Part shown: positions 1,388 to 22,049 of the stretch, one piece after another
How positions within the stretch are numbered: the first letter of the stretch is position 1
Layout of the letters: every line of letters begins with the position of its first letter
Source: Azoarcus sp. Aa7
GTDB lineage: Bacteria; Pseudomonadota; Gammaproteobacteria; Burkholderiales; Rhodocyclaceae
Length of the DNA stretch: 30,000 bases
Reading direction: 5' to 3'
NCBI GenBank assembly: GCA_014822185.1
Contig: QVLR01000079.1
Location: 101,401 to 131,400, forward strand
The notes under the pieces: model-generated
What the model saw: the letters and a program-made list of their open reading frames with translations, nothing else
What the model was told of the DNA's origin: nothing
Database searches by the model: none
Made by a program: the position numbers and the translations under genes

Positions 1388-1463
1388 GGTCCGTTCCATC
1401 ATGCCACAGGGCGGGTGGAACGGACCGTCGGCGGCCGGGAGCCGGGAGAGGGCGCGACCGGAA

Positions 1464-2621
1464 TCAGGACGCGCTTCGCACCAGCGCCGCCAGCCGCTCC
1501 AGCCCGACATCGGCCTGCTCCGCGGTCGCATGGCTGAAATTGAGCCGCAGTTGGCCGCAGGCCTCGACTTCGTATGGCAGGAAGGGCTCGCCCGGCATGA
1601 AGGCGACGTTCGCTGCGATGGCCTTCGGCAGGAGCGTGCGGGTGTCGATCCGCTGTTTCAGGGTCAGCCAGAAGAAGAGGCCGCCCGGGGGTGTGCGCCA
1701 TGTGGCGATGTCGCCGAAATGTCGGCGGAGGGCCTGTTCGAACGCATCGCGGCGGACGCGATAGCTCGCGACGAGGGCGTCGATGCGCGCTTGGCGCGCG
1801 GGATCGTTGAGCTGCTGCAGCACCACCCACTGGCTGACACGGTTGCTGTGCAGGTCGGCAGCCTGCTTGAGGCGCGTCAGAAAGGGGAGCAGTTCGGGCG
1901 AGGCGACGAGGTAGCCCAGCCGCAGTCCGGGAGCGAGGCTCTTCGAAAAGGACCCCTGGTAGATCCACGGCGTGCGCCGCAGCCGGGCGCACATCGGCGT
2001 GCGTTCGCAGGGGTCGTAGGCGAGGTCGCGGTAGGGGTCGTCCTCGAATACGGGGATCCGCGCTTCGTCGAGGCTGGCGGCCAGCGCGGCGCGTTGCGCG
2101 GCGTCGAGGCAGCGTCCGCTCGGATTCTGGAAGGTGGGGATGACGTAGGCGAACGCGGGTGTCTCGCGCACGAAGGATGCCGTATCGGGTGCCTCGGCGT
2201 CGTAGGCGAGCAGACGTGCGCCGAAGAAGCGGAACACCTGGAGGGCTGCGAGGTAGGTCGGGGACTCCACGGCGACGGGGGTCTGCGGATCGATGAACAG
2301 TTTTGCGACGAGGTCGATGCCCTGTTGCGACCCGGAGACGATCAGGACCTGGTCGGCCGTGCAATCCAGGCCCCGCGTGCGCAGGTCCGCGGCGATCCAT
2401 TCGCGCAGCGGGCGTTCCCCCTCACTGGGGCCGTACTGCAGGGCATTCTGCGGCATGGTGTCGAGGGACAGCCGCGGAAAACTGTCGCCGGAGGGCAGGC
2501 CGCCGGCGAACGAGATCATGCCCGGCCGATCGACGACGGCGAGGATTTCGCGGATCGGCGACGCGTGCAGGTCGCGGGTGCGGGTGGAAAATGCGGGGAG
2601 GGCGGATAGCGGGGCGGTCAT
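1464..2621 (-). CDS. PLP-dependent aminotransferase, class I/II (AspC/ARO8/2-aminoadipate aminotransferase-like)
   Basis: 385 aa. Motifs: FAGGLP, TPTFQNPSG, the PLP-lysine motif SFSKSLAPGLRLGY, and C-terminal LRLNFS. Confidence 0.85.
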   Translation of the reverse strand: MTAPLSALPAFSTRTRDLHASPIREILAVVDRPGMISFAGGLPSGDSFPRLSLDTMPQNALQYGPSEGERPLREWIAADLRTRGLDCTADQVLIVSGSQQGIDLVAKLFIDPQTPVAVESPTYLAALQVFRFFGARLLAYDAEAPDTASFVRETPAFAYVIPTFQNPSGRCLDAAQRAALAASLDEARIPVFEDDPYRDLAYDPCERTPMCARLRRTPWIYQGSFSKSLAPGLRLGYLVASPELLPFLTRLKQAADLHSNRVSQWVVLQQLNDPARQARIDALVASYRVRRDAFEQALRRHFGDIATWRTPPGGLFFWLTLKQRIDTRTLLPKAIAANVAFMPGEPFLPYEVEACGQLRLNFSHATAEQADVGLERLAALVRSAS

Positions 2622-2639
2622 CGTGGCGTCCGGTGAAAT

Positions 2640-2702
2640 GTCAATAATATTGACCTATGGACAAGGTAATGGTTCGCCTTCTAGCATGTCAATATGGTTG
2701 AC
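2640..2702. promoter_or_regulatory. Two related 15-bp inverted repeats, GTCAATaatATTGAC (2640-2654) and GTCAAtatggTTGAC (2688-2702); candidate MarR operators in the divergent aminotransferase/marR intergenic region
   Basis: Read directly. The second box overlaps the marR ATG (2694). MarR-family proteins typically bind pseudo-palindromes in their own divergent promoter regions. Confidence 0.45.
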
Positions 2703-3161
2703 CAAAAGTTCTCCTGCGCCCGCGGCGCGTCCGCTTCCGATGAAGCACGGCTGCGCAAGGCGATCGAGCTGCTCTATTTCGGCTATCGCGCCTTCACCGC
2801 ACCGCCGGACCGCATGCTCGAAGAGCGCAGCCTCGGACGGGTGCATCACCGCATCCTGTATTTCGTCGGCGGCAATCCGCAGATTGCGGTGAATGCCCTG
2901 CTCGGCGTGTTGGGCGTGAGCAAGCAGGCCCTGAATGGGCCATTGCGGCAACTGGTCGAGATGGGGCTGGTCGCGACCGATACTGCCGCGCACGACCGGC
3001 GCGTCCGTCAGTTGCGGCTCACCGCAGCGGGCGAGGCACTGGAAGCGCGCCTCACGGGCGCGCAGATGGTCCAGCTGGAGGCCGCATTCGCGCAGGCCGG
3101 CGCCGGGGCCGAGGCGGGGTGGCTCGCGGTCATGGAAGGCCTTGTCGATCGGGGGCGGTAG
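2694..3161 (+). CDS. MarR-family transcriptional regulator
   Basis: 155 aa. Winged-HTH core: HHRILYFVGGNPQIAVNALLGVLGVSKQALNGPLRQLVEMGLV...DRRVRQLRLTAAGEAL. Confidence 0.85.
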   Translation: MVDQKFSCARGASASDEARLRKAIELLYFGYRAFTAPPDRMLEERSLGRVHHRILYFVGGNPQIAVNALLGVLGVSKQALNGPLRQLVEMGLVATDTAAHDRRVRQLRLTAAGEALEARLTGAQMVQLEAAFAQAGAGAEAGWLAVMEGLVDRGR

Positions 3162-3217: not shown

Positions 3218-3931
3218 CTAGGCCTTCGGCAGGCCCCGGACTTCGGGCCAGGTGCCGCCGAGTAGTTGCGTGAGCTCGGCAGCGAATTTGTGCATCGTGG
3301 GCACCATGCTTTCGAGCGTCTTTTCGTCGAGCCGGTACTTGGGGCCGGAAACCGACAGGGCGCCGACCAGGCGTTGCTGGACGGCGAAAACGGGGCAGGC
3401 CACTGCCGCGGTTTCGGGGTCGCGTTCGCCCAGCGACATTGCGTAGCAGCGGTCGCGTATCTGGTCGTACTTGGCGCCGGACAGGCCGCTGAAGGCGAGC
3501 AGGACGTGGCCGGACGCGCCGTTGTTGAGCGGGAAGGCGTCGCCTTCATGGATCGCGTCGCGGATCGCGCGCGGGGAGTCGACGCGGTGCAGGCACACGC
3601 GGCGGTCGTCGTCGCGCACGAAGAAGGAAATGCCTTCGCGGATTTCCTCGGACATGCGGCGCATGATCTGCGGCACGAAGTCCGAGGTGCTGAAGTGCTT
3701 CTGGTACAGGGAGCCGAGGTACAGCGGTTTGGGGCCCAGGCGGTAGGCGCCGTCGTCGAGGCGGCGCAGGTAGCCGAACTTTTCCAGCGACTCCGCCAGT
3801 CGCAGCGTGGTGCTCTTGTAGAAGCCCGCACGCTTGGAGATCTCGGTCAGGGTCAGGCTCTTGTCCCGGTCGGTGAAGACATCGAGGATGGTCAGGGCGC
3901 GTTCTACGGATGCGACGCCTTCGCTGCTCAT
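3218..3931 (-). CDS. IclR-family transcriptional regulator
   Basis: 237 aa. N-terminal HTH (VERALTILDVF...LTLTEISKRAGFYKSTTLRLAESL), C-terminal IclR effector domain (GASGHVLLAF ... AVACPVF ... GALSVSGP). GGAG RBS 8 nt upstream. Confidence 0.9.
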   Translation of the reverse strand: MSSEGVASVERALTILDVFTDRDKSLTLTEISKRAGFYKSTTLRLAESLEKFGYLRRLDDGAYRLGPKPLYLGSLYQKHFSTSDFVPQIMRRMSEEIREGISFFVRDDDRRVCLHRVDSPRAIRDAIHEGDAFPLNNGASGHVLLAFSGLSGAKYDQIRDRCYAMSLGERDPETAAVACPVFAVQQRLVGALSVSGPKYRLDEKTLESMVPTMHKFAAELTQLLGGTWPEVRGLPKA

Positions 3932-4317: not shown

Positions 4318-5205
4318 ATGCAAGACCCGTTTTTTCCGACCTCTGATGCTTCAGGCAACGTCCTGGGGATGGACGGTCTCGAATTCGTCGAATTCGCTTC
4401 GCCCGACCCGGATGCGCTCGGCGCTCATTTCGAACGCATGGGTTTTTCCGCCGTGGCGAAGCACAGGTCGAAGAACGTGGTCCTGTACCGCCAGGGCGAC
4501 ATCAATTTCCTCGTCAACTCCGACGAGGAGAGCTTTGCGCAGACTTTCAACCGGACCTACGGGCCGGGGATCTGCGCGATCGCGCTGCGCGTGAAGAACG
4601 TGGCGTCCGCGTACAAGCGTGCGCAGGCGATGGGTGCGTGGGACGTGCCGCCGCATGCGGGCGCGATGGAATTGAACATCCCCGCGATCATCGGCATCGG
4701 CGGAACGCATGTTTACTTCATCGACCGCTACGGCGATCACACGATCTACGACGTCGACTTCGTGCCGCTGCCGCAGACGAAACCGCCGGCGACGCCGATG
4801 GGGCTGACGAGCGTGGAGCACGTGGCGCTCACCGTGTGTGCGGGTCGTGAACAGGAGTGGATCGAGTTTCACGAGCAGGTGTTCGGATTCCGCGTGCTGC
4901 AAACGAGCGCGAGCGGGTCCATCTGGATGGAAAGCCCCTGCGGCAAGTTGCGCATCGTCCTGCGTCCGGCGTCCGACCAGGTACGCGAGGGGGAGCCGCC
5001 GGCCGACCCGCTGAACGTCGAGGGGATCGCCTGCATCGGCATAGAGACGCATTCGCTTGCGGATGTGGCGGCAGGCTTCGGCGAGACGGGGATTCCGGTC
5101 GCCCGCGGGCCGGAGAACGATCCGGAGCGGCCGGGCGTGAAGCATCTGGTCACCGCGCCGGTCGTGGATCCGTTCTACTTCGAGATCGTGCAGCGCACGG
5201 AGTGA
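4318..5205 (+). CDS. 4-hydroxyphenylpyruvate-dioxygenase-like VOC-fold protein (equivalent of the C-terminal domain of QsuB/QuiC1 3-dehydroshikimate dehydratases)
   Basis: ORF 4102..5205. The start is taken at ATG 4318 (MQDPFFP) behind CAGGAG/AAGGA; the upstream 72 codons are Arg-rich junk. Shows a two-module glyoxalase/HPPD pattern (GLEFVEFASPDP...MGF; VEHVALTV...) and ends in FYFEIVQR, the HPPD-type FFE(I/F)IQR motif. Confidence 0.75.
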   Translation: MQDPFFPTSDASGNVLGMDGLEFVEFASPDPDALGAHFERMGFSAVAKHRSKNVVLYRQGDINFLVNSDEESFAQTFNRTYGPGICAIALRVKNVASAYKRAQAMGAWDVPPHAGAMELNIPAIIGIGGTHVYFIDRYGDHTIYDVDFVPLPQTKPPATPMGLTSVEHVALTVCAGREQEWIEFHEQVFGFRVLQTSASGSIWMESPCGKLRIVLRPASDQVREGEPPADPLNVEGIACIGIETHSLADVAAGFGETGIPVARGPENDPERPGVKHLVTAPVVDPFYFEIVQRTE

Positions 5206-5273: not shown

Positions 5274-6116
5274 ATGAAGACTCACAGGATCGGGATCAAC
5301 AGCGCGACGCTCCCCGGAACGCTGCACGAGAAAATGGACGCCGTGCGGGAAGCGGGATTCGGTGCCTTGGTATTGAGCGCCAAGGATCTGCTGGCGCATC
5401 CCGATGGCGCCGCTGCCGCTGCACGCAAGGTGCGCGCGAGCGGCGTGCGGGTAAGCGCGTTCCAGTTCCTGCGGGAAATGACCGGGGACTCCGACCGCGA
5501 GGTCGGTTACCGCATCGATGCGGCGAAATCGATGATCGAACTGGCGGCTTCGGTGGGCTGCCGGCTGCTGATCGTCTCCTCGTCGACGGCACCCACGGCC
5601 ATCGCCGATCCGGCGGCGCTGGCGCGCAACCTCGCAGTGCTCGGCACGCTTGCAACCCCTTACGGCATCCGCATCGGCTACGAGGCACTGGCGTGGGGGC
5701 GCTGGGTGAGCGAGTACCCCGATGCGTGGCAGGTCGTGCAGATGGCGAACCGCCACAACGTCGGCCTGGTCATCGACTCCTTCCAGATCCTGATGCGGCA
5801 GACCTCGCTCGATTTGCTGGCGGACATTCCGGCCGACCGCATCTTCCTCGCGCAGTTGTCGGACTGCTCGTTCGACTTCGTGACCGAGATCGACGAGTTC
5901 GTCGAGATTTCGCGTCACGAGCGCCGCTTCCCCGGCGAAGGCGTGCATGGCCGGCTGATTTCCGACCTCGTCGCGCGCCTGCGGGGCAAGGGTTATGCGG
6001 GCGATTACACCCTCGAAGTCTTCAATGACGAGAATCTGCGCTCCGCTCTGCCGGCCGTGATCGCCCGCGCGCAGGCGTCGGTGCAGTGGCTCGCCGACAA
6101 GGTCGCCGCGGCCTGA
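5274..6116 (+). CDS. Xylose-isomerase-like TIM-barrel protein, 3-dehydroshikimate dehydratase type (QsuB/QuiC1 N-terminal domain-like)
   Basis: Start at ATG 5274 (MKTHRIGINSATLPG). Motifs I recognise from QsuB/QuiC-type DSDs: IGYEALAWG, DSFQIL, IFLAQLSD, SRHERRFPGEG, TLEVFND. Confidence is for the family; DSD activity is inferred. Confidence 0.75.
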   Translation: MKTHRIGINSATLPGTLHEKMDAVREAGFGALVLSAKDLLAHPDGAAAAARKVRASGVRVSAFQFLREMTGDSDREVGYRIDAAKSMIELAASVGCRLLIVSSSTAPTAIADPAALARNLAVLGTLATPYGIRIGYEALAWGRWVSEYPDAWQVVQMANRHNVGLVIDSFQILMRQTSLDLLADIPADRIFLAQLSDCSFDFVTEIDEFVEISRHERRFPGEGVHGRLISDLVARLRGKGYAGDYTLEVFNDENLRSALPAVIARAQASVQWLADKVAAA

Positions 6117-6264: not shown

Positions 6265-6295
6265 GGTCGCACGGGTGTTTTGCGACCTTGTTCTG
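6265..6295 (+). terminator. Possible weak intrinsic terminator after the TIM-barrel gene
   Basis: 7-bp stem GGTCGCA/TGCGACC (6265-6271 / 6281-6287) followed by TTGTTCTG. Short stem and interrupted T-tract. Confidence 0.3.
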
Positions 6296-6322
6296 AAAAA
6301 CAAAACAAGGTTCTAAAAGCGG

Positions 6323-6351
6323 TTGCACTGTGAAGAATTGCGTTCTATTAT
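6323..6351 (+). promoter_or_regulatory. Sigma70-type promoter TTGCAC-N17-TATTAT for the CoA-transferase operon, with operator-like box GAATTGCGTTC in the spacer
   Basis: Read directly: TTGCAC 6323-6328, 17-nt spacer, TATTAT 6346-6351, ATG at 6405. The 11-mer 6335-6345 is the exact reverse complement of 16349-16359. Confidence 0.5.
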
Positions 6352-6404
6352 TCGATCAACGTGACAGGATCGATGTTGATCCACAGTGAACTAAGGGGTA
6401 GCAC

Positions 6405-7607
6405 ATGACTGCAGCGCTTTCCGGAATCCGCGTCCTCGACCTGACCAACGTTCTGGCGGGGCCGTTCTGCGCGTATCAGCTGGCGCTGCTCGGTGCCGAG
6501 GTGATCAAGGTCGAGGTGCCGGAGTCGGGCGATCTGGCGCGTCAGCTCGGGGCCGATCCGGCGCTGAACAAGGCGAAGATGGGCGCGTCCTTCCTCGCGC
6601 AGAACGGCGGCAAGAAGTCGCTGACGCTGAACCTCAAGTCCGACGCGGGCAAGGAGGTGCTGTTCCGCCTCGTGAAGAGCGCCGATGTGCTGGTCGAGAA
6701 CTTCCGCCCGGGCGTGATGGATCGCTTGGGCCTCGGTTACGACGTGCTGAAGGAAGTGAATCCGAAGCTCGTCTATTGCGCGATTTCGGGTTTCGGCCAG
6801 CAGGGTCCGATGCGGCACGCGCCGGCCTACGACCAGATCGTGCAGGGCATGTCGGGCGTGATGAGCATCACCGGCGACGATGAGTCCGCACCCTTGCGCG
6901 TGGGCTACCCGGTCGCCGACACCATCGGCGGCATCACCGCGGCCTTCGCGGTGTCGAGCGCGCTGGTGCGTCAGGCGAAGACCGGCGAAGGCGAATTCAT
7001 CGACGTGTCGATGCTCGATTCGACGATCGTGACGATGGGCTGGGTGGTGTCGAACTACCTGATCGCCGGCAAGGAGCCGGTGCCGATGGGCAACGAGAAC
7101 TTTACCGCGGCGCCGTCGGGCACCTTCCGTACCGGCGAGGGGCCGCTCAACATCGCCGCGAACAAGCAGGAGCAGTTCGAGGCGCTGGCGGATGCGATCG
7201 GCCGGCCCGATCTGAAGACCGACGAGCGTTTCGCCGAGCGCGAGGCCAGGAAGCGCAACCGCAAGGCGCTGAAGGCGGAGGTCGAGTCAGGGCTGGCGTC
7301 GAAGTCGGCGGGCGAGTGGGAAACCATCCTCGCGAAGCTGGGCGTGCCCGCGGGCTGCGTGCTGACCGTGCCGCAGGTGCTGGAACATCCGCAGATCCGC
7401 GAACGCGACCTGCTCGCCAAGTTCGAAGACGTGCCGGGCGTGGGGCGCGACCTCAGCCTCGTGCGTGCCGGCTTCAAGATGCGCGGCGGCAATCCCGACG
7501 TGGCGACACCGCCGCCGGTGCTCGGCGCGCACACCGACTCGCTGCTGGCCGAACTGGGCTATTCCGCGGGCGAGATTTCGCAACTCCACGAACAACAGGC
7601 GGTTTGA
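6405..7607 (+). CDS. Family III (CaiB/BaiF/Frc-type) CoA-transferase
   Basis: 400 aa. GIRVLDLTNVLAGPFCAYQLALLGAEVIKVE, ADVLVENFRPGVMDRLGLGY, YCAISGFGQ; the catalytic Asp region GYPVADTIGG is present. Confidence 0.9.
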   Translation: MTAALSGIRVLDLTNVLAGPFCAYQLALLGAEVIKVEVPESGDLARQLGADPALNKAKMGASFLAQNGGKKSLTLNLKSDAGKEVLFRLVKSADVLVENFRPGVMDRLGLGYDVLKEVNPKLVYCAISGFGQQGPMRHAPAYDQIVQGMSGVMSITGDDESAPLRVGYPVADTIGGITAAFAVSSALVRQAKTGEGEFIDVSMLDSTIVTMGWVVSNYLIAGKEPVPMGNENFTAAPSGTFRTGEGPLNIAANKQEQFEALADAIGRPDLKTDERFAEREARKRNRKALKAEVESGLASKSAGEWETILAKLGVPAGCVLTVPQVLEHPQIRERDLLAKFEDVPGVGRDLSLVRAGFKMRGGNPDVATPPPVLGAHTDSLLAELGYSAGEISQLHEQQAV

Positions 7608-7609
7608 AC

Positions 7610-8449
7610 ATGAAGAGTGCCGAGGACATCGTCCGCGACGCGCAGGCGTGGTGGACCACCGAAATCATCGACATCGAGCCGGGCAGGATCGCGATGCGCG
7701 GCTACCCGATCGAGGAACTGATCGGCAACGTCAGCTTCCCGCAGATGATCTGGCTGATGGTGCGCGGCGACCTGCCGACGCCGGAGCAGTCGCGGTTGCT
7801 GGAAGCGGCGCTGGTGGCGGCGGTGGATCATGGCCCGCATGCGCCGTCGATCGCGATCTCGCGCATGGCCGTGACCTGCGGCGTCGAGCTGAACAACGCG
7901 ATGGCGTCGGCGGTGAACGTGCTGGCCGGCATCCACGGTGGCGCGGGGCAGCAGTGCATGGAGCTGTATGCCGACGCGGCGCGCCGCATCGCAGAAGGTG
8001 TGGCCCTCGAAGAAGCTGTCGAGGCCGCACTCGATGCCTATATTGCAGAGAACGGCAAGGTGATCCCCGGTTTCGGCCACCGCTTCCATCCGATCGACCC
8101 GCGCTCGGGCAAGCTGCTCGCAATGGTCGAGGAAGCGCGTGCGAAGGGTGTCGTCGAGGGGCTGTATTCGCAGATCGGCCAGCAGGTCGAGGCGATCCTC
8201 GAGCGGCGCAAGGGCAAGCGCATCCCGATGAACATCGACGGGGCGACGGCGGTGATCTACGCGGAGCTGGGTTTCGCGCCGGAACTGGGGCGCGGGCTCT
8301 TCATCCTGTCGCGTTCGGTCGGCATCCTGGCCCACGCGTGGGAGCAGTCGCAGCAGGGCGGTCGCATCAAGGGGCCGATGCCCAAGAACATTCCTTACAC
8401 CTATGCGGGACCGGCGCGCCGTGCCGTTCCCGGGAAGAACCAGGCGTAG
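7610..8449 (+). CDS. Short citrate-synthase-like protein (citryl-CoA-lyase-type, lacks the N-terminal part of full citrate synthases)
   Basis: ATG 7610 lies 2 nt after the CoA-transferase stop (coupled). 279 aa. All three citrate-synthase catalytic motifs are recognisable: LAGIHGGAG (His), PGFGHRFHPIDPR (His), MNIDGATAVIY (Asp). Confidence 0.8.
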   Translation: MKSAEDIVRDAQAWWTTEIIDIEPGRIAMRGYPIEELIGNVSFPQMIWLMVRGDLPTPEQSRLLEAALVAAVDHGPHAPSIAISRMAVTCGVELNNAMASAVNVLAGIHGGAGQQCMELYADAARRIAEGVALEEAVEAALDAYIAENGKVIPGFGHRFHPIDPRSGKLLAMVEEARAKGVVEGLYSQIGQQVEAILERRKGKRIPMNIDGATAVIYAELGFAPELGRGLFILSRSVGILAHAWEQSQQGGRIKGPMPKNIPYTYAGPARRAVPGKNQA

Positions 8450-8539
8450 CCCCGGCTTCGCAAGTGACGGCATAGCGCACGGGTTCGCCCGTGCCGACAT
8501 CGAAACGGAAATGACATCCAAATCTGGAGGCGACGCCAA

Positions 8540-10300
8540 ATGAAGCAACTGATCTCCCATCAGCTCGTCCGGTATCTCGAAGACCGCGGGGTCGAGCACA
8601 TCTTCGGCCTTTGCGGCCACACGAACATCGCGGTGCTGACGGCGCTGGAAAACAGCAAGATCCGCTTCATCAACACGCGCCACGAGCAGATCGCCGCGCA
8701 CGCCGCCGACGGCTATGCCCGCGCGACGAAGAAGGCGTCGGTCGTGCTGTCGCACCTCGGACCGGGCCTGACCAACGCCGCGACCGGCGTCGCGAACGCC
8801 GCGCTCGATTCGATCCCGATGGTGGTGATCGCGGGCGACATCCCGAGCTACTACTACGGCAAGCACCCGCACCAGGAGATCAACCTGCACGCGGACGCGT
8901 CGCAGTGGGAGATCTACCGCCCCTTCGTGAAGCGTGCGTGGCGTGTCGATACGCCGGAGCTGTTCCCGGAGATCCTCGAAAAGGCCTTCCAGCTCGCCGA
9001 AAGCGGGCGTCCCGGCCCGGTGCTGGTGAACGTGCCGATGGATTTCTTTTCGCGCGAGATCGACGTTTCGCTCTTCACCCGCCTGCGTCATCACACCAAG
9101 GCGGTGCAGAAGCCGTCGATCGACGACGTGACCGCAAAGAAGATCGTGCAGGCGCTGCTCGACGCGAAGGATCCGGTGATCTACGCCGGTGGCGGCGTGA
9201 TCCTGGCCGATGCGGCCCAGGAGCTGCGCGCCTTCGCCGAGCACCTGTCGCTGCCCGTCGCGCATTCGCTGATGGGCAAGGGCGTGCTGCCGGACGACCA
9301 TGAGCTGGTGTTGGGCATGACTGGCTTCTGGGGTACGAAGCTGGTGAACGACAAGTGCCGCAACGCGGACTGGATCATCGGCCTCGGCACGCGCTTTGCG
9401 GAAGCCGACTGCAGTTCGTGGGAGAACGAGTTCACCTTTTCCTTCCCGCCGACCAAGCTGATCCACATCGATATCGATTCGAACGAGATCGGGCGCAATT
9501 ATCCGGTCGAGATCGGCGTCGTCACCGACCTCAAGAGCGCGCTGACGGTGCTCAACCGCGTCGCCCGCGAGATGCTGCCGGAAGGCCGCAGGAACGACGC
9601 GCTGCGCAAGGAAATCGCGGCGTTCCGCGAGACCTTCGTGGCCGGCAACCAGAAGTTCGTGCAGGACGACTGCTTCCCGATGATGCCCGAGCGCATCCTG
9701 TCGGTGGTGCGCGAAGTGCTGCCGCGCGACGCGTTCATCACCACCGACGTGGGCTGGAACAAGAACGGCGTCGGTCAGCAGTTCCCGATCTACACGCCGG
9801 GCAGCATCCTGACCCCGGGCGGCTACTGCACGATGGGTTTCGGCGCCCCCGCGGCGCTCGGCGCGAAGGTCGCATTCCCGGACCGCGTGGTCGTGTCGCT
9901 GGTGGGTGACGGCGGCTTCGGCCAGAACCCGGCGGTGCTCGCGACGGCGGTCGAGGAGAACATCCCGGTGATCTGGGTCATCATGAACAACTTCGCGTTC
10001 GGCACCATCGCCGGCCTGCAGAAGGCGCACTACGGCACGACGACCGGCACGCTGTTTCGCAAGGACGGCGAGCCCTACCAGGCGGATTTCGCCGCGGTGG
10101 CGCGTGCGTATGGCGCGGAAGGCGTGAAGATCGAATCGGCCGAGCAGTTCAAGGAAGTGCTCGCGCAGGCGGTGAAGTCTAACAAGCCCTTCGTGATCGA
10201 CGTCGCGATGAAGAACAACCCGGTGCCGACGACCGGCCACTGGAACATCCTCGACATCTACTCGCCGAACGCGAAGGTGTCGCACGTCAGCACGGACTAA
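8540..10300 (+). CDS. Thiamine-diphosphate-dependent enzyme of the acetolactate synthase / glyoxylate carboligase / pyruvate oxidase superfamily (substrate unknown)
   Basis: 586 aa. Catalytic Glu context RHEQIAAHAADGYAR, GPGLTNA, and the ThDP-binding GDG...NN motif (LVGDGGFGQNPAVLATAVEENIPVIWVIMNN). Does not look like the Xsc, Oxc, IolD or cyclohexane-1,2-dione hydrolase sequences as far as I can recall them. Confidence 0.9.
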   Translation: MKQLISHQLVRYLEDRGVEHIFGLCGHTNIAVLTALENSKIRFINTRHEQIAAHAADGYARATKKASVVLSHLGPGLTNAATGVANAALDSIPMVVIAGDIPSYYYGKHPHQEINLHADASQWEIYRPFVKRAWRVDTPELFPEILEKAFQLAESGRPGPVLVNVPMDFFSREIDVSLFTRLRHHTKAVQKPSIDDVTAKKIVQALLDAKDPVIYAGGGVILADAAQELRAFAEHLSLPVAHSLMGKGVLPDDHELVLGMTGFWGTKLVNDKCRNADWIIGLGTRFAEADCSSWENEFTFSFPPTKLIHIDIDSNEIGRNYPVEIGVVTDLKSALTVLNRVAREMLPEGRRNDALRKEIAAFRETFVAGNQKFVQDDCFPMMPERILSVVREVLPRDAFITTDVGWNKNGVGQQFPIYTPGSILTPGGYCTMGFGAPAALGAKVAFPDRVVVSLVGDGGFGQNPAVLATAVEENIPVIWVIMNNFAFGTIAGLQKAHYGTTTGTLFRKDGEPYQADFAAVARAYGAEGVKIESAEQFKEVLAQAVKSNKPFVIDVAMKNNPVPTTGHWNILDIYSPNAKVSHVSTD

Positions 10301-10398: not shown

Positions 10399-11259
10399 AT
10401 GGACAATGCAGGACCGAACCCGCTGTCGATCTCCGGTTCGACGCTCCTCTACCCGGTCATCGGCTACCCGGTGGGCCAGGTAAAGGCGCCGATTCTGTAC
10501 AACAAGCTGTTCGCCGCGACCGGTATCGATGCGGTGGTGGTGCCGCTGGAGATCGCGCCGGCCGACTTCGCGAGAGTCGGGCCGGCGCTTTTTGCCGTTT
10601 CCAACGTGCGCGGCGCGATGATCACGATCCCGCACAAGCCCGCGTGCGTCGATTTTCTCGACGCGGCGAGCGCCGCGGTGAGGGCCGCCGGCGCGTGCAA
10701 CGCGATCGTCAAGCGCGCGGACGGCACGCTCTTCGGCGATCTCTTCGACGGCGTCGGCTTCGTACGCGGCTTGAAGCGCGCGGGCGTCGAGCCGAGGGGC
10801 ATGCGCTGCCTGGTCGTGGGCTCGGGCGGCGTCGGTGCGGCGATCGCCGTGGCGTTGGGCGAGGCCGGCGCGGCGAGCGTGGGCGTGTCGGACATCAGCG
10901 CCGACAGCGCGGCACGGCTTGCAGGGCGGCTCGTGAGCTTCGGCGTGTGCCGCGAGGCCTTCGTCGCGACGAACGACCCCGCGGGCTACGATCTCGTCGT
11001 CAACGCGACACCGCTCGGGCTCAAGGAGAGCGATCCGCTGCCGGTGCCGGTCGAGCGCCTCGCGCCCGGCACGGTGGTCGCGGACGTCATCATGAAGATC
11101 GACTTCACGCCGCTCCTGCTCGCCGCGCGTGAGCGCGGCTGCACGATACACATGGGGCGGGAGATGTTCATCGAGATGGCGCCGCTGTATCTTTCGCTGT
11201 TCGGTTACGACGGCTACACCTCCGACGGCATCCGCAAGCTGGTCGGCTACAAGGATTGA
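10399..11259 (+). CDS. Shikimate/quinate dehydrogenase-family oxidoreductase (non-canonical substrate motifs)
   Basis: 286 aa. Shows the AroE/YdiB architecture: ITIPHK (catalytic Lys), GACNAI, GDLFDGVGF (catalytic Asp), Rossmann VVGSGGVGAAIA, NATPLG. The N-terminal HSxSP/SRTP carboxylate-binding motif reads GQVKAP, and NTD reads LFD. Confidence 0.8.
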   Translation: MDNAGPNPLSISGSTLLYPVIGYPVGQVKAPILYNKLFAATGIDAVVVPLEIAPADFARVGPALFAVSNVRGAMITIPHKPACVDFLDAASAAVRAAGACNAIVKRADGTLFGDLFDGVGFVRGLKRAGVEPRGMRCLVVGSGGVGAAIAVALGEAGAASVGVSDISADSAARLAGRLVSFGVCREAFVATNDPAGYDLVVNATPLGLKESDPLPVPVERLAPGTVVADVIMKIDFTPLLLAARERGCTIHMGREMFIEMAPLYLSLFGYDGYTSDGIRKLVGYKD

Positions 11260-11324: not shown

Positions 11325-12107
11325 ATGGCATTTACCCGTGCTCTGGAAGTGAAAGGCAAGCCGGTCGGCGAAGGCAAGGAACCGCTGGTGTGCGCACCGC
11401 TGGTCGGCCGTGACGAGGCCGGCGTGCTCGGCGAACTCGACGCGATCGTCGCGAAGCAGCCCGATCTGCTCGAATGGCGCGTCGATTTCTTCGCTGGCAT
11501 CGCCGATACCGGCCGAGTCGTGGAACTGGCGCAGGAAGTCCGCAAGAGCTCGGCGGGAATTCCGATCATCTTCACGCGCCGCTCGATCCGCGAAGGCGGC
11601 GAGACGATCGGCATCTCGGAAGAGCAGGTGCTTGAGATGTACCAGGCGGTCGCGCGTTCGGGCGCGGTCGATTTCCTCGACTACGAGCTGTCGTGCGAGC
11701 CGAAGCATTTCGCCGCCGCTGTCGAACTTGCCCGCGAGACCGGCACGAAGCTGATCGCGTCCTTCCACAACTTCCAGAAGACCCCGTCGGCCGAGGAGAT
11801 CGTCGCGAAGTTCGTCTCGATGGAAAAGGCCGGCGCGGATGTCGCGAAGGTCGCGGTGATGCCGCAGGGGCTCGAGGACGTGCTGACCGTGCTGCAGGCG
11901 ACGCTGGACGGACAGAAGAAGATCTCGCTGCCCATCATCAGCATGTCGATGGGCGCCTACGGCTCGCTCTCGCGCCTGTTCGGCTGGGTGTTCGGTTCGT
12001 CGGTGAGCTTTGCGGTCGGGCAGAAGGCGTCGGCTCCGGGACAGGTGCCGATCGAGGATCTGCGACGCGTTCTCGACGTGCTGCAGCGTTCGCTCGCCGG
12101 AAAGTAA
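11325..12107 (+). CDS. aroD: Type I 3-dehydroquinate dehydratase
   Basis: Start at ATG 11325 behind GAGGAA. Collinear with E. coli AroD as I recall it: LEWRVD, IFTRRS..EGG, SFHNF (His143 equivalent), ADVAKVAVMP (Schiff-base Lys170 equivalent), ISMSMG, ASAPGQ. Confidence 0.9.
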   Translation: MAFTRALEVKGKPVGEGKEPLVCAPLVGRDEAGVLGELDAIVAKQPDLLEWRVDFFAGIADTGRVVELAQEVRKSSAGIPIIFTRRSIREGGETIGISEEQVLEMYQAVARSGAVDFLDYELSCEPKHFAAAVELARETGTKLIASFHNFQKTPSAEEIVAKFVSMEKAGADVAKVAVMPQGLEDVLTVLQATLDGQKKISLPIISMSMGAYGSLSRLFGWVFGSSVSFAVGQKASAPGQVPIEDLRRVLDVLQRSLAGK

Positions 12108-12217: not shown

Positions 12218-12967
12218 ATGACCTTCGATACCGCAGGCTGGATCGTCGCCGGCATTGCCGTGCTGCTCACCGGCATCTCCAAGTCCGGCCTCGGCGGCGC
12301 CTTCGGCGGGCTCGCCGTGCCCTTCATGTCGCTGTGGATCACGCCCGTCCAAGCGGCGGCGGTGATGCTGCCGTTGCTCGTGTTCATCGACTGGATCGGG
12401 ATCCGGGCGTACTGGCGCAGATGGTCGAGCGAGGAAATCCGCCTGCTGCTGCCCGCCGCCGCGGTTGGCATGCTGGTCGGGACGGTGGTGTTCGGCTGGA
12501 TGCCGGAGAAGGCGGTGAAGGGCTGCGTCGGCGCGATCGCCGTGCTGTTCGCGCTCGACCGGATCTTCGGGCTGCGCGCCCGGCTCAAGCTTTCGGGGCC
12601 GCCGGGGAAGGCCACGGGGCTGTTCTGGGGCGCGGTGTCGGGCTTCACCAGCACGATTGCGCACGCCGGTTCGCCGCCGCTGCTCGTGTATCTGCTCAAC
12701 CGTGGCCTCGCCAAGGACACTTTCGTCGCGACCACGGTGATCTACTTCACTGCGGTCAACGCCGTGAAGATCGTGCCCTATGCGGCGCTGGGGCTGTTCA
12801 CGTGGGAATCGCTGAAGATGTCGCTGCTGCTCGCGCCGATCGCTCCCGTCGGCGTGTGGATCGGCCTCAAGGCGCTGAAGCGCATCCCGGAACGGGCGTT
12901 CTTCGTGTTCGCGACGGCGATGCTAGGGCTTTCCGGCGTGAAGCTGCTGTGGGATGCGTTCGCGTGA
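12218..12967 (+). CDS. TSUP (TauE/SafE) family anion-exporter-like membrane protein
   Basis: 249 aa, about 8 hydrophobic segments, duplicated G-rich motifs (GISKSGLGGAFGGLAVP; GFTSTIAHAGSPPLLVYLL). Confidence 0.85.
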   Translation: MTFDTAGWIVAGIAVLLTGISKSGLGGAFGGLAVPFMSLWITPVQAAAVMLPLLVFIDWIGIRAYWRRWSSEEIRLLLPAAAVGMLVGTVVFGWMPEKAVKGCVGAIAVLFALDRIFGLRARLKLSGPPGKATGLFWGAVSGFTSTIAHAGSPPLLVYLLNRGLAKDTFVATTVIYFTAVNAVKIVPYAALGLFTWESLKMSLLLAPIAPVGVWIGLKALKRIPERAFFVFATAMLGLSGVKLLWDAFA

Positions 12968-12970: not shown

Positions 12971-13912
12971 TCAACCGAGCTGCGGCTGAAGCATCCAGAT
13001 CACCGCGCTCACCGAGAAGAAGGCGCTGATCGTCGTGGCCATCAGCGCGGCGGCGGGGAGTTCCTCCTGGCCGAAGCGCTGCGCGATGATCGGGAAGATG
13101 CTCGCCATCGGCATGCAGGCGAAGGCGATCGCCGCGACGCGCAGCGTCGGATCGAGCGGCGGCAGGAGCGTCAGCGCGATGAACACGAAGAGCGGGTGAA
13201 GGACGAGCTTGCCTGCGACGATTTGCGCGATGTCGCGGCGCATGCCGCGGACCTTGATGCCGACCAGCGTCCCGCCGATGACGAAGAGCGCCACACCCGC
13301 CGCGGCGAGCGAGAGCATGTCGATGGAGCGCGCGACCGGAGCGGGCAGGCGGATGCCCAGCAGCGCGAGGCTGAAACCTGCGACGATGGCGATGATGAGC
13401 GGGTTTTTCGCAAGCCGGGTGAAGGTCTCGATCACCACGCGATGAATCTTCTTGCCGTCACCCCCTCTGCTCTCGGCGAGCGCCAGCGTCAGCGGCACGA
13501 TCAGCAGGTTCTCGACGAGGAAGCACAGCGCCAGCGCGATGCCGGCCGCCGGGCCGACGACCTGCAGCACGATCGGGTAACCGATGAAGCCGCTGTTCGA
13601 CAGGGACATGCCCATGCCGTGCACCACGCCGGTCTGCAGCGTTTTCTTCTGCACGAGGCGCGCGAAGCCGATGCCCGCGGCGAAGGCCGCAAGCGAGCCG
13701 AGCGTGTAGGCGGTCAGGTAGCCGACGTTCATGATCTCGGAGAAGGGACGTTCGGTCAGCGCTTTCAACAGCATCGCCGGCAGCGCGATGTTGATCGCGA
13801 ACTTGCCGAGGATGCGCGTCTCGCTCTTGTCGAAGAGGCCGTTGCGCACCGCGGCGAAGCCGATCGCGATGACGAGGAAGGCCGGGCCGGTGATCAAAAA
13901 AACGTCGAGCAT
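12971..13912 (-). CDS. AEC (auxin efflux carrier) family transporter
   Basis: ORF 12971..13960. I prefer the start at M17 (ATG 13912, MLDVFLITGPAFLVIAIGF), the typical AEC N-terminus. Polytopic throughout. Confidence 0.85.
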   Translation of the reverse strand: MLDVFLITGPAFLVIAIGFAAVRNGLFDKSETRILGKFAINIALPAMLLKALTERPFSEIMNVGYLTAYTLGSLAAFAAGIGFARLVQKKTLQTGVVHGMGMSLSNSGFIGYPIVLQVVGPAAGIALALCFLVENLLIVPLTLALAESRGGDGKKIHRVVIETFTRLAKNPLIIAIVAGFSLALLGIRLPAPVARSIDMLSLAAAGVALFVIGGTLVGIKVRGMRRDIAQIVAGKLVLHPLFVFIALTLLPPLDPTLRVAAIAFACMPMASIFPIIAQRFGQEELPAAALMATTISAFFSVSAVIWMLQPQLG

Positions 13913-13969
13913 GGGTGCAATCCGGAGGGGTGCGCGGAGCATAACACCGGGGTGTGGCATGTCCGCGAA

Positions 13970-14497
13970 CTAGACGAGTCCGAGGGCTCCCGCCGCCGCG
14001 CCGGCACCGATGTACCACAGGGGGTGCCAGCTGCGCACGGACATGAGGCCGGTGCACGCGAGCGTCAGCAGGATGCCGCGCAGGTCGAGTCCCGCCGAGG
14101 CGCCGATCAGCCAGCCGCTCGTACAGACCAGGCCCACGGCGAGGGGGGCGACGCCGGTCTGGATCGCCTCGCGCCACGGTGCGTCGCGGAAGCGTTCCCA
14201 ATGCCGGTAAAGAAAGAAGATGACCAGGCTCATCGGCAGGCTGATTGCGAGTGTCGCGGCGATCGCGCCCGGGATGCCGGCAACCTTCCAGCCGATCAGC
14301 GACACGACCAGCAGGTTGGGCCCCGGTGCGGCCTGGGCGATCGCGAAGAGGTGGGCGAAGGTGGTTTCGTCCATCCACTGGCGCTGCTCGACGACGACGC
14401 GGTGCAACTCGGGCAGCATCGCCGTGATGCCGCCGAAGGCGACCACGGTGAGGATGCTGAACTGCAGGAAAAGATCGGCGAGCAGCGCCACCGTCAC
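13970..14497 (-). CDS. Short-chain chromate-ion-transporter (CHR) family protein, C-terminal-type half
   Basis: 175 aa. CHR signature: AFGGITAMLPELHRVVVEQRQWMDETTFAHLFAIAQAAPGPN. Confidence 0.85.
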   Translation of the reverse strand: MTVALLADLFLQFSILTVVAFGGITAMLPELHRVVVEQRQWMDETTFAHLFAIAQAAPGPNLLVVSLIGWKVAGIPGAIAATLAISLPMSLVIFFLYRHWERFRDAPWREAIQTGVAPLAVGLVCTSGWLIGASAGLDLRGILLTLACTGLMSVRSWHPLWYIGAGAAAGALGLV

Positions 14498-15126
14498 GAG
14501 TCCGTTTTCGCGGTTGTGGCTAGCCCCGCCGCGCGGCGCGCGCGCCTATAGGCGATGAGGCCGGTCATGCCGAGCAGCGCCAGCATCAGCGGCGGCAGCG
14601 GCAGGCGCAGGATCACCAGCGCAACGAGGATCAGCGCCGCGAAGGGCAGGTAGATCCACCGCTCGGGCACGTTGCGCGCCATCTTCAATGCTGTCGCGAA
14701 GAGCAGTCCCGCGCCGGCGGCCGCGATGCCGCGCAGCATGTCCTGCACGACGGCGAGGTGACCCCAGACGCCGTAGGCGGTCGCGAGCGCCATCATCACG
14801 AGGAAGGGGCCGAGCAGCAGTCCGGAGGTCGCGACGATCGCGCCGCGCGCACCGTGGAAGCGCGCGCCCACGCACACGGCGAGATTGACGACGTTGGAGC
14901 CGGGCAGGAACTGGCACAGGCCGAGCAGGGCGTTGAAATCGGCGCCGCTCATGAGACGGCGTTCCTCGACGAGGAGATGCCGCAGCAGCGGCAGCACGCC
15001 GCCGAAGCCCGACAGGCCGACGCGCGAGCACGCGAGGAAGAGTTCCCACAGACCGGGCTGGCGCGACAGCTCCTGGTGAGGGGACCCCGGTTCCGGCGCG
15101 ACCGGGGCGGCAGGGGAGTTACTCAT
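14494..15126 (-). CDS. Short-chain CHR family protein, N-terminal-type half
   Basis: Start at M70 of ORF 14494..15333 (ATG 15126, MSNSPAAP). CHR signature GLSGFGGVLPLLRHLLVEERRLMSGADFNALLGLCQFLPGSN. Its stop overlaps the next gene's ATG (ATGA, 14494-14497), as in paired SCHR genes. Confidence 0.85.
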   Translation of the reverse strand: MSNSPAAPVAPEPGSPHQELSRQPGLWELFLACSRVGLSGFGGVLPLLRHLLVEERRLMSGADFNALLGLCQFLPGSNVVNLAVCVGARFHGARGAIVATSGLLLGPFLVMMALATAYGVWGHLAVVQDMLRGIAAAGAGLLFATALKMARNVPERWIYLPFAALILVALVILRLPLPPLMLALLGMTGLIAYRRARRAAGLATTAKTDS

Positions 15127-15253
15127 GCGTCCGGCGCTCCAGGGGCGGCGCTGCGGCGCGGGCAGGGGAAGACTCCCTCCGCGCCGCAGGCGAGGATGAG
15201 GTGCGCGGACGACGGCGGGAGGGGAGGGAGTGCCGAAGCCCGCGCGGAGGAGA

Positions 15254-16336: not shown

Positions 16337-16365
16337 TTGACAAAACATGAACGCAATTCTAAAGT
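16337..16365 (+). promoter_or_regulatory. Sigma70-type promoter TTGACA-N17-TAAAGT for the IclR gene, with box GAACGCAATTC in the spacer and a perfect-arm palindrome GAACAaTGTTC (16367-16377) at about +1
   Basis: Read directly. Consensus -35, 17-nt spacer, 4/6 -10, ATG at 16401. Confidence 0.5.
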
Positions 16366-16400
16366 GGAACAATGTTCAAGTTTTAAAGCGAGGTGCGGAG

Positions 16401-17231: not shown

Positions 17232-17280
17232 CGCGCCTCCTCAAGCAATCGCAGCCAAGGCACCACTGGAGACATCGAAA

Positions 17281-18453: not shown

Positions 18454-18466
18454 TCGTCCGACCGAG

Positions 18467-18558
18467 CGTAGGGCGGAAAAGCGAAGCGCCTTCCGCCGGA
18501 TGTTGGCGGCGGGCGGCCCCCATGCGGCGGATTACGCCTTCGGCTCATCCGCCCTACG
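18467..18558. repeat. REP-like composite palindromic element (outer arms CGTAGGGCGG...CCGCCCTACG, two internal imperfect hairpins)
   Basis: Read directly: CGTAGGGCGGAAAAGCGAAGCGCCTTCCGCC ... GGCGGATTACGCCTTCGGCTCATCCGCCCTACG. It shares the GTAGGGCGG terminus with the elements at 20887 and 21953 but has different hairpin interiors. Confidence 0.6.
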
Positions 18559-18584
18559 CGTTCCCGGTAATCATGGAGTGTGAC

Positions 18585-20114: not shown

Positions 20115-20129
20115 CAGGAGATATTGCGA

Positions 20130-20879: not shown

Positions 20880-20886
20880 CGATGGA

Positions 20887-20956
20887 CGTAGGGCGGGATG
20901 AAATCCCGCCGAATGGGCCGTGCCGCAGTTCCGGCGGGATTTCATCCCGCCCTACG
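20887..20956. repeat. REP-like doublet: perfect 24-bp inverted repeat CGTAGGGCGGGATGAAATCCCGCC / GGCGGGATTTCATCCCGCCCTACG separated by 22 nt
   Basis: Read directly. Each arm is itself a hairpin (GGCGGGA-tgaaa-TCCCGCC). The element lies inside the etfB-etfA intergenic gap. Confidence 0.8.
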
Positions 20957-21003
20957 GATTAGCGGGATTGCCTTGATAGTGTGAGGATTACGAGAGGATC
21001 CAG

Positions 21004-22024: not shown

Positions 22025-22049
22025 CGGCCCCCGACAGGATCCTCCCCGC

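Follow-up and report, generated by a model that had tools for sequence, protein, structure and literature searches.

Candidate ring-opening genes among the quinate/shikimate genes of Azoarcus sp. Aa7: a CoA-transferase, a citryl-CoA-lyase-like protein and an unnamed ThDP enzyme family

What do a CoA-transferase, a citrate-synthase-like lyase and a thiamine diphosphate (ThDP) enzyme do in the middle of a quinate/shikimate gene set? The question is raised by a stretch of 30,000 nucleotides from Azoarcus sp. Aa7 (contig QVLR01000079.1, positions 101,401 to 131,400; hereafter the window), in which three forward-strand genes for a family III CoA-transferase (6405-7607), a truncated lyase of 279 aa (7610-8449) and a three-domain ThDP enzyme (8540-10300) follow one another. 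Few plant acids reach soil, sediments and guts in larger amounts than quinate and shikimate, whether free or set free from chlorogenic acids. The textbook bacterial catabolism of these compounds runs only via protocatechuate and then oxygen-dependent ring cleavage, and how strict anaerobes and denitrifiers use hydroaromatics without aromatic intermediates has reportedly been an open question since enrichment work of the early 1990s. Comparison of this triad with related loci leads us to a tentative reading, just short of probable, in which it would be central to a catabolic route, written here in five steps, that degrades quinate and shikimate independently of oxygen and without aromatising them. 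That the route passes via a dehydroquinate-derived 1,2-dione and homocitrate to acetyl-CoA and 2-oxoglutarate, in at least several hundred species, is a possibility that we advance with somewhat more reserve.

The three triad genes are real and lie at these coordinates. The window has a G+C content of about 66%, the called frames are supported by third-position GC (GC3) values of 0.76-0.96, the coding frames in the GC3 frame plot are unambiguous, and the products match PF02515 (409 bits), NF004864 (461 bits) and PF02776, PF00205 and PF02775 (132-146 bits for each of the three ThDP-enzyme domains). The 2-nt gap between the CoA-transferase and lyase genes (7608-7609) was correctly described in the initial annotation, and so were the flanks. 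On one side stand a forward HPPD-like (Glyoxalase_5) gene (4318-5205; PF14696, 183 bits; ATG at 4318) and a forward gene for a QuiC1-type, xylose-isomerase-like TIM barrel, here called TIMq (5274-6116), whose ATG at 5274 corrects an earlier start; on the other, also forward, are a shikimate/quinate dehydrogenase-like (SDH-like) gene (10399-11259; PF08501) and the gene of a type I 3-dehydroquinate dehydratase (AroD; 11325-12107; PF01487, 234 bits). The AroD open reading frame (ORF) opens at 11256; its start is probably 11325, judging from the 260-aa homologue of Aromatoleum diolicum. We also count as a member of the system a second TIM barrel, TIMp, encoded on the reverse strand at 15254-16090, beyond the region first considered.

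The ThDP enzyme retains the catalytic Glu (E49) and the GDG..NN motif (G456-D-G-X24-N483-N484) that had been read from the sequence, and both are invariant in its family. It falls below every NCBIfam cut-off, with 432 bits against 538 for TIGR00118 (acetohydroxyacid synthase, AHAS), 318 against 791 for Gcl and 317 against 620 for Xsc, and IolD is not among its 25 best NCBIfam matches. Against the PDB, plant AHAS scores 276 bits, BbmA 271, Gcl 250, Oxc and 2-hydroxyacyl-CoA lyase (HACL) 175-195 and cyclohexane-1,2-dione hydrolase (CDH) 169; the top AHAS and Gcl structures share 28-30% identity with it, CDH shares 25%, and the Foldseek ranking of the predicted model repeats this sequence-based order. 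Compared with Arabidopsis AHAS, the protein has H27-T28-N29 in place of the active-site G-A-S, a histidine at position 72, and a His-rich stretch, YYGKHPHQE (H109, H111), followed by a 6-residue insertion (insert 105-119), all of which are invariant in the family; H27 may correspond to the CDH active-site residue H28, judging from the alignment offset. By these measures the ThDP protein clusters with no characterised enzyme and represents an unnamed family, belonging to no named ThDP family. Its members are currently annotated 'acetolactate synthase' or 'thiamine pyrophosphate-binding protein'.

The protein is 98-99% identical to those of A. evansii, A. tolulyticum and strain KH32C, which places the window in this group of denitrifying Betaproteobacteria, and identity between Betaproteobacteria and Bacillota is still 77-80% (the window compared with loci L005, L022, L028 and L036). 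The neighbours are far less conserved across the same distance: TIMp and its Priestia counterpart share 44% identity, and the lyases do not even have the same fold. The high conservation of the ThDP protein points to very strong constraint, horizontal transfer, or both.

A survey in which each species was represented by a single genome yielded at least 593 relatives of the ThDP protein, and the best 80 species-level loci encode proteins 73-99% identical to it. Among their carriers are Betaproteobacteria (Aromatoleum, Thiobacillus, Thiomonas, Castellaniella, Rhodoferax and Variovorax), aerobic Bacillota (Priestia, Bacillus safensis, Brevibacillus and Domibacillus) and strict anaerobes (Sporomusa, Anaerospora, Ca. 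Formimonas and a Clostridiales bacterium). Neighbours were mapped by tblastn and by de novo clustering of all ORFs in 81 loci overall, among which 59 species-level loci have at least 8 kb on both sides. A shikimate-type gene (dehydroquinase I or II, SDH, AroK-like, or QuiC1 parts) lies within 10 kb of the ThDP gene in 48 of the 59, an association far beyond chance, as the corresponding figure for a random gene is roughly estimated at a few percent. The functional tie between the triad and hydroaromatic genes that had been proposed from the window is thus borne out by a linkage kept across phyla, strict anaerobes included. Lyase genes are present in 45 of these loci, aldehyde dehydrogenase genes in 53 and TIMp in 37; of all 81 loci, 35 have an IclR gene together with the ThDP gene. 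The ORF clustering found no further enzyme family conserved in the loci, for example no aldolase.

Five minimal clusters (L059, L061, L063, L066 and L068) hold only a TRAP transporter, a LacI regulator, an HMG-CoA-lyase-type (HMGL) protein, TIMp, a Zn-dependent alcohol dehydrogenase (Zn-ADH), the ThDP enzyme and an acylating aldehyde dehydrogenase, and in the strict anaerobe Ca. Formimonas (L072) SDH, lyase, acylating aldehyde dehydrogenase, dehydroquinase I, ThDP enzyme and TIMp form one run on the forward strand. A cluster of this kind could in principle be biosynthetic, with the ThDP enzyme acting as a carboligase that builds a specialised metabolite from dehydroshikimate or dehydroquinate, and the closest solved relatives do include carboligases (BbmA, CsmA, annotated 'ThDP-dependent HKA synthase'). 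We give this idea very little credence, because the loci carry uptake systems (TRAP, MFS, TctC), regulators of catabolic type (IclR, LacI, GntR) and CoA-lyases that release acetyl-CoA, and no tailoring or export genes are conserved across them.

Two further features were noted during the survey. A stand-alone shikimate-kinase-like gene (~185 aa) accompanies the ThDP cluster in 24 loci (L032, L033, L036, L038, L046, L049 and ~18 other Bacillota); its top NCBIfam matches are shikimate kinases, all under cut-off, and it could serve shikimate salvage, act as a ligand sensor or reflect a real phosphorylated intermediate. In Noviherbaspirillum denitrificans, a 130-aa remnant of the citrate-synthase-like lyase (L009/L024, 9541-9935) precedes the ThDP gene, there is no CoA-transferase, and a ThDP paralogue, 53% identical, lies 4 kb away beside an MmgE/PrpD gene; from its gene content this locus looks like a decaying copy of the cluster.

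In which order might the enzymes act? An indication comes from genes that replace one another. An acylating aldehyde dehydrogenase of the SauS/EutE type and the CoA-transferase occur together in 4 of the 59 loci, the former alone in 23, the latter alone in 24 and neither in 8 (Fisher p = 5e-6), and the non-acylating aldehyde dehydrogenase co-occurs with the CoA-transferase (25/5/3/26; Fisher p = 1e-8); the loci share ancestry, which inflates these p-values, but the patterns do cross phyla and gene orders. Since 23 of the 59 loci lack the CoA-transferase and have the acylating aldehyde dehydrogenase instead, CoA would enter after the ThDP step. On the simplest reading, the aldehyde carbon becomes the thioester carbon and the resulting acyl-CoA is the substrate of the lyase, and the replacements thus suggest the order ThDP enzyme, aldehyde, acyl-CoA, lyase. 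The lyase itself is of two kinds, citrate-synthase-like in 25 loci and HMG-CoA-lyase-like in 20, with no locus having both; the latter type, used among others by the Priestia clusters, reaches 350 bits in NF004283 (cut-off 246). Citrate-synthase-like and HMG-CoA lyases are both known to cleave tertiary 3-hydroxyacyl-CoAs, namely citryl-CoA and HMG-CoA.

The initial annotation had leaned towards the reverse order, with CoA first. In a scheme of the Frc/Oxc or HACL type, the CoA-transferase would make quinoyl-CoA and the ThDP enzyme would cleave it to formyl-CoA and trihydroxycyclohexanone. Oxalate metabolism does offer a precedent for a family III transferase working with a ThDP enzyme, and HACL and Oxc structures are detectable homologues of the ThDP protein. 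Nevertheless, their 175-195 bits stay below the 250-276 bits of AHAS and Gcl, the acylating aldehyde dehydrogenase takes the place of the CoA-transferase in the 23 loci just described, and the scheme leaves the lyase without a substrate and the aldehyde dehydrogenases without a role. This logic did not survive the comparison, and we consider it extremely unlikely. The broader proposal that it belonged to, a ring opening that bypasses aromatisation, stands as the most economical reading.

The two CoA-handling proteins of the window were compared with known families. The CoA-transferase covers positions 1-366 of the 366-position PF02515 profile (gathering score 23.3), and its D172, within GYPVAD-TIGG, may correspond to the catalytic Asp169 of Frc, judging from the motif. 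It reaches no NCBIfam equivalog cut-off (Frc, YfdE, succinate-glutarate, succinyl-CoA:mesaconate or CaiB); the top model is succinate-glutarate CoA-transferase (302 bits, cut-off 750), the Frc models give 245-259 bits (cut-offs 442-504), and the PDB matches include succinate-hydroxymethylglutarate CoA-transferase (232 bits). Judged by these profiles, it is a family III member outside the named equivalogs whose best models are dicarboxylate transferases. The lyase passes NF004864 'citryl-CoA lyase' (461 bits, cut-off 261) with model positions 4-276 of 278 matched, corresponds to the C-terminal half of citrate synthase only (PF00285 positions 162-353 of 357), and has as its nearest solved structure the citryl-CoA lyase 6hxp (147 bits). 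Despite its shortness it has kept the His/His/Asp motifs, as first noted, with H109 (GIHGG), H157 (GFGHR) and D210 (NIDG) spaced by 48 and 53 residues; from motif and spacing we take these to be the equivalents of His274, His320 and Asp375 of the pig enzyme. The genomic context suggests that its substrate is a homologue of citryl-CoA longer by one methylene.

The lyase family is large, as a homologue search showed, and it is not confined to ThDP loci. A pair of lyase (72% identical) and CoA-transferase (58-60%) is also found in Bradyrhizobium and Methylobacterium (L002, 7219-11862; L003, 7175-11889; L004, 557-5271), in an operon that adds a DASS carboxylate symporter, a lactonase-like Amidohydro_2 protein (top NCBIfam match L-fucono-1,5-lactonase) and a LysR regulator, and these loci contain neither a ThDP enzyme nor a shikimate gene. 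As the transferase/lyase pair occurs without either, it can be viewed as a portable module that activates and splits a citrate-like acid. A Thiomonas cluster also closes with a lactonase-like gene (L091, 18852-19679). The lactonase-like genes would fit a lactonising hydroxy-tricarboxylate such as homocitrate, which is speculative.

Might the whole triad, then, have nothing to do with hydroaromatics and simply degrade a citrate-like acid beside an ordinary quinate-to-protocatechuate cluster? The rhizobial and methylobacterial pairs with their DASS transporter would suit this idea, as would a QuiC1-type dehydratase in the window and Burkholderiales loci without hydroaromatic genes. In that Burkholderiales subgroup (Piscinibacter, Rhizobacter, Caldimonas and Variovorax), the loci consist only of IclR, aldehyde dehydrogenase, CoA-transferase, lyase and ThDP genes, at times with a TRAP transporter or dehydroquinase II; when the flanking DNA was searched by tblastn with queries matched to the lineage, neither SDH nor dehydroquinase nor a TIM barrel turned up. 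The initial annotation had stated beforehand that its proposal would fail if the ThDP protein clustered tightly with a characterised enzyme and the triad recurred without hydroaromatic genes; the recurrence is seen in this subgroup, and the tight clustering is absent. An unrelated triad is nonetheless improbable in our judgment, because the ThDP gene is linked to dehydroquinase, SDH or AroK-like genes in 48 of the 59 loci, in unrelated phyla and varied gene orders, and because L072 encodes SDH, dehydroquinase, ThDP enzyme, TIMp, acylating aldehyde dehydrogenase and lyase in a single run in a strict anaerobe. Judging from their lifestyle, strict anaerobes presumably lack the oxygen-dependent protocatechuate route.

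The reading as a hydroaromatic route next calls for enzymes that prepare the ring. TIMq and the HPPD-like protein, which had been taken for a pair of dehydratase genes, together represent QuiC1 in split and permuted form, with the HPPD-like part first: TIMq aligns to positions 5-251 of the QuiC model NF042435, the dehydroshikimate-dehydratase catalytic domain, and the HPPD-like protein to positions 289-468, the QuiC1 C-terminal domain, here separately encoded. Domain-level homology to QuiC1 is clear (PDB 5hmq, 134 bits for TIMq), although membership in NF042435 with its fused architecture fails, as two genes in reverse order score 126 and 153 bits against a cut-off of 1200. The HPPD-like gene accompanies the TIMq gene in 13-14 loci. 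The dehydroquinase passes TIGR01093 (210 bits against 139), and the SDH-like protein reaches up to 160 bits with NCBIfam SDH models, under their cut-offs. SDH-like and Zn-ADH genes are mutually exclusive (0/24/16/19 in the 59 loci). The Zn-ADH is found in 24 loci, all from Bacillota, where its median spacing from the ThDP gene, -3 bp, suggests that the two are translationally coupled. In that phylum the genes for dehydrogenase, TIM barrel and ThDP enzyme follow directly on one another.

TIMp is the barrel type that goes with the ThDP gene across phyla, occurring in 47 of the 81 loci and within 300 bp of that gene in 18 of the 59. Its AlphaFold2 (AF2) model (pLDDT 89) has IolI, Lmo2234 and QuiC1 as nearest structures (TM 0.78-0.80), with 19-22% identity to IolI and QuiC1, and profile comparison with TIMq/QuiC1-type barrels gives an hhalign probability of 98.4%. 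The substrates of IolI and QuiC1 are cyclitol ketones. In Noviherbaspirillum, a QuiC1-type barrel takes the usual place of TIMp beside the ThDP gene. Regulators accompany TIMp as well: in the window its gene is divergent from a second IclR gene, a layout shared by A. diolicum, and in Thiomonas-type loci an IclR gene stands directly 5' of it. The gene of Lmo2234 adjoins quiR2 (lmo2233) at the qui2 operon of Listeria, which serves the conversion of quinate/shikimate (bioRxiv 10.1101/2025.04.08.647683).

The five steps of the proposed route would then run as follows, with substrates and products inferred from chemistry. In step 1, SDH or the Zn-ADH would oxidise quinate to 3-dehydroquinate, and shikimate would enter as dehydroshikimate through the reversible type I dehydroquinase. 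In step 2, TIMp, possibly together with the QuiC1-like pair, would strip the C5 hydroxyl via a C4 enolate, yielding 1-hydroxy-3,4-dioxocyclohexane-1-carboxylate; this step is modelled on dehydroshikimate dehydratase and IolE, which use the same enolate chemistry. In step 3, the ThDP enzyme would attack the C3 carbonyl and cleave C3-C4 hydrolytically, as IolD and CDH do, to give an open chain with the aldehyde on the short arm, OHC-CH2-C(OH)(COOH)-CH2-CH2-COOH. In step 4, an aldehyde dehydrogenase would convert this to homocitrate, whose short (carboxymethyl) arm would be activated by the CoA-transferase, and in other lineages the CoA-acylating aldehyde dehydrogenase would perform oxidation and activation together. 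In step 5, the lyase would split the tertiary 3-hydroxyacyl-CoA into acetyl-CoA and 2-oxoglutarate.

Several considerations shape this scheme. In the quinate skeleton, C1 is the sole tertiary carbinol and lies two carbons from C3, the ketone of 3-dehydroquinate; with both lyase families known for tertiary 3-hydroxyacyl-CoAs, this places the attack at C3 and the cleavage at C3-C4. Because no other enzyme family is conserved in the loci, the enzymes listed must end in central metabolites. The atom balance closes (C7H12O6 + H2O - 4[H] = C2 + C5), and the five minimal clusters fit the scheme exactly. Three other chemistries were set aside. Dehydroshikimate as ThDP substrate with internal redox gives a product that offers the lyase no 3-hydroxyacyl-CoA; if dehydroquinate were opened by a retro-aldol step and the ThDP enzyme then decarboxylated the product, a reactive C4 aldehyde would remain and the tertiary-carbinol lyases would have no role; and for protocatechuate as an on-pathway intermediate there is no plausible ThDP chemistry.

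A route that dispenses with the dehydration deserves separate mention. Here the ThDP enzyme would be a lyase that cleaves the acyloin of 3-dehydroquinate (C3 ketone, C4 hydroxyl) directly to a dialdehyde; oxidation, CoA activation and the lyase would then give acetyl-CoA and 4-hydroxy-2-oxoglutarate, which a housekeeping aldolase would turn into pyruvate and glyoxylate, and TIMp would be an isomerase or a side-branch dehydroshikimate dehydratase. The Burkholderiales loci, with ThDP enzyme, aldehyde dehydrogenase, CoA-transferase and lyase but no TIM barrel at the locus, speak for it, as do the two aldehyde dehydrogenases of the Thiomonas-type loci and the presence of an isomerase (IolI) besides dehydratases among the nearest structures of TIMp. 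It is, however, unlikely, for it requires an aldolase that is never found in the clusters, leaves a second aldehyde untreated in minimal clusters with a single acylating aldehyde dehydrogenase, and has no role for TIMp, whose gene in 18 of the 59 loci is no more than 300 bp away from that of the ThDP enzyme.

Another possibility is that the ThDP enzyme comes into play once the lyase has acted, in the role of a 2-oxo-acid decarboxylase or carboligase. The sequence would lead from CoA-transferase and lyase to a 2-oxo acid, an aldehyde and an aldehyde dehydrogenase; 2-oxoglutarate, for example, would pass through succinate semialdehyde and end as succinate or succinyl-CoA. Decarboxylation of 2-oxo acids is indeed carried out by AHAS and Gcl, the closest characterised relatives, the window has the genes for CoA-transferase, lyase and ThDP enzyme in this order, and aldehyde dehydrogenases stand alongside the ThDP gene in 53 of the 59 loci. 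Such a pathway would nevertheless want a ring-opening enzyme, nothing would supply the acyl-CoA for the lyase in the 23 loci without a CoA-transferase, and the tight trio of dehydrogenase, TIM barrel and ThDP genes would go unexplained. We regard it as improbable, though not so far-fetched as a quinoyl-CoA or biosynthetic scheme.

Ring opening of a dione by the ThDP enzyme remains our preferred reading, and a number of observations count against it. The nearest characterised relatives of the enzyme are AHAS/Gcl carboligases and decarboxylases rather than IolD or CDH, and its AF2 model, built from a 10-sequence alignment, has a pLDDT of 70 with active-site loops below 50, so that the active site is unreadable. 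The window has no aldehyde dehydrogenase gene, and its TIMp gene lies ~5 kb from the ThDP gene on the opposite strand. The QuiC1-type dehydratase pair, which would be expected to make protocatechuate, lies inside the cluster; our guess is that it serves a parallel, probably aerobic, branch. The dehydratase step may not be obligatory, considering the Burkholderiales subgroup without a TIM barrel at the locus, and the proposed dione could aromatise spontaneously. Finally, the five-step scheme is drawn from gene comparison and enzyme chemistry. In A. diolicum, an aldehyde dehydrogenase gene (L001, 4967-6457) does lie between the IclR and HPPD-like genes.

Is the triad transcribed from a promoter of its own, bearing an operator, as had been proposed for 6323-6351? 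What the comparison supports is a conserved block. The promoter-like sequence TTGCAC-17 nt-TATTAT on the forward strand is under the promoter-scan threshold; its part at 6333-6351 is invariant in four Aromatoleum species, and A. diolicum departs from the others in the upstream part of the spacer. Within GGATCGATGTTGATCC (6367-6382) there is a second invariant block, with one base different in A. diolicum. Both blocks are conserved footprints in the alignment, putative as promoter or operator. A perfect 8-nt inverted repeat, ACCTTGTT-N11-AACAAGGT (6285-6311), lies 5' of the promoter-like block; it is found in A. tolulyticum and has one arm mismatch in A. toluolicum, and as an operator it was dropped because it is not kept in A. 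diolicum.

The cluster is bordered on the left by a reverse-strand gene for an IclR-family regulator (PcaR/PcaU/PobR-like; 3218-3931; Pfam HTH_IclR and IclR_C), which is divergent from the HPPD-like gene and scores 104 bits with TIGR02431, under its cut-off. This gene is taken as the left border of the conserved region because A. diolicum has other genes at the equivalent of 419-3161, where the window encodes, on the reverse strand, a DHH/DHHA1-domain protein and a class I/II aminotransferase whose ORFs overlap at 1464-1657, and in addition a MarR regulator (2685-3161). To the right of AroD, a forward gene encodes a TauE/SafE-family anion permease (12218-12967; PF01925, 109 bits); it is kept beside the cluster only in Aromatoleum, and whether it is part of the system is uncertain. 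An AEC-family permease (12971-13969) and two adjacent chromate-transporter-family genes (a split ChrA pair, 13970-15351, reverse) stand between the cluster and TIMp, likewise in A. diolicum. Beyond TIMp, the second IclR-family gene (16347-17231, forward; HTH_IclR and IclR_C) begins a catabolic-looking set (16347-22931) with an acyl-CoA dehydrogenase (17281-18453), a family I CoA-transferase (within 18024-20114), the beta and alpha subunits of an electron transfer flavoprotein (ETF; 20124-21957) and an EamA transporter (22050-22931); its start, from IclR to the acyl-CoA dehydrogenase, is syntenic in A. diolicum up to the end of that locus (L001). Unrelated to the cluster are a large RTX calcium-binding repeat protein (23091-25349, reverse; 8 HemolysinCabind stretches) and, at 26472-29167 on the reverse strand, a DUF938 methyltransferase-like gene and the gene of a FemAB-like/GNAT protein of 684 aa.

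Full-text literature searches, whose coverage left out most subscription journals, found no description of such a route. If the proposal is true, the route spans denitrifying Betaproteobacteria, Bacilli and strictly anaerobic Firmicutes, and it would comprise three new activities, namely a dehydroquinate 5-dehydratase, a ThDP-dependent hydrolase that opens the ring and a homocitryl-CoA lyase activity that occurs in two unrelated folds. The gene set offers a concrete, testable answer for anoxic use of hydroaromatics, the ThDP gene could serve as a marker of quinate/shikimate ring-opening capacity in genomes and metagenomes, and a function would be given to a ThDP family now annotated as acetolactate synthase. 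Should the homocitrate variant hold, it would link a plant cyclitol acid to 2-oxoglutarate in few steps, supply new biocatalysts for C-C cleavage and possibly explain the rhizobial CoA-transferase/lyase/lactonase module.

How does the system compare with known ones? The classical quinate/shikimate-to-protocatechuate route (QuiA/B/C, QsuB/C/D) has the SDH-like protein, the dehydroquinase and a QuiC1-type dehydratase in common with it, but the QuiC1 homologue here is split and permuted, the clusters also occur in strict anaerobes, and ThDP enzyme, TIMp, aldehyde dehydrogenase, CoA-transferase or acylating aldehyde dehydrogenase, and lyase have no place in that route. Frc/Oxc and HACL systems likewise have a family III CoA-transferase gene adjoining a ThDP gene, whereas the ThDP enzyme of the window most likely uses a free, CoA-less substrate before CoA enters. 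With citryl-CoA lyase (Hydrogenobacter CCL and the C-terminal module of ATP-citrate lyase), the lyase shares the truncated citrate-synthase fold and the His/His/Asp residues. Its partner is a CoA-transferase or an acylating aldehyde dehydrogenase rather than citryl-CoA synthetase, and it differs further in its catabolic context, its exchange for an HMG-CoA-lyase type and the proposed homocitrate-type CoA ester as substrate. The pairing of succinate-hydroxymethylglutarate CoA-transferase (SUGCT) with HMG-CoA lyase is similar in that a family III transferase activates a 3-hydroxy-3-substituted dicarboxylate, which is then split into acetyl-CoA and a keto acid; the substrate proposed here would have a carboxyl in place of the methyl group and one extra methylene.

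The nearest parallels for the ring opening are found in cyclitol and alicyclic dione catabolism. CDH of Aromatoleum diolicum 22Lin (PDB 2pgn, 4d5g), from the same ThDP superfamily and the same genus, cleaves an alicyclic 1,2-dione hydrolytically and without O2 to an omega-oxo acid, and A. diolicum also carries the present cluster; at 25% identity and 169 bits, CDH and the ThDP enzyme of the window belong to different families. The myo-inositol route of Bacillus subtilis (IolG/IolE/IolD) follows the same logic, in which a cyclitol dehydrogenase and a xylose-isomerase-like TIM-barrel dehydratase prepare a cyclohexane-1,2-dione whose ring a ThDP hydrolase opens to an aldehyde-acid; the genes are adjacent in both systems, and the best structural match of TIMp is the barrel IolI of the Iol cluster. 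The proteins are not orthologues, as IolD is outside the 25 best NCBIfam matches and TIMp is only 19-22% identical to IolI and QuiC1. The proposed substrate here also differs in carrying a carboxylated tertiary carbinol, and a CoA ester and a citryl- or HMG-CoA-type lyase would follow instead of IolB/C/J/A. As regards a putative function like that of IolD and CDH, the trio of dehydrogenase, TIM barrel and ThDP genes is conserved and an aldehyde product appears to be implied by the aldehyde dehydrogenases of 53 of the 59 loci. By analogy, the system as a whole resembles a cyclitol catabolism by dehydrogenase, dehydratase and ThDP ring hydrolase, followed by a split of the citryl-CoA- or HMG-CoA-lyase type.

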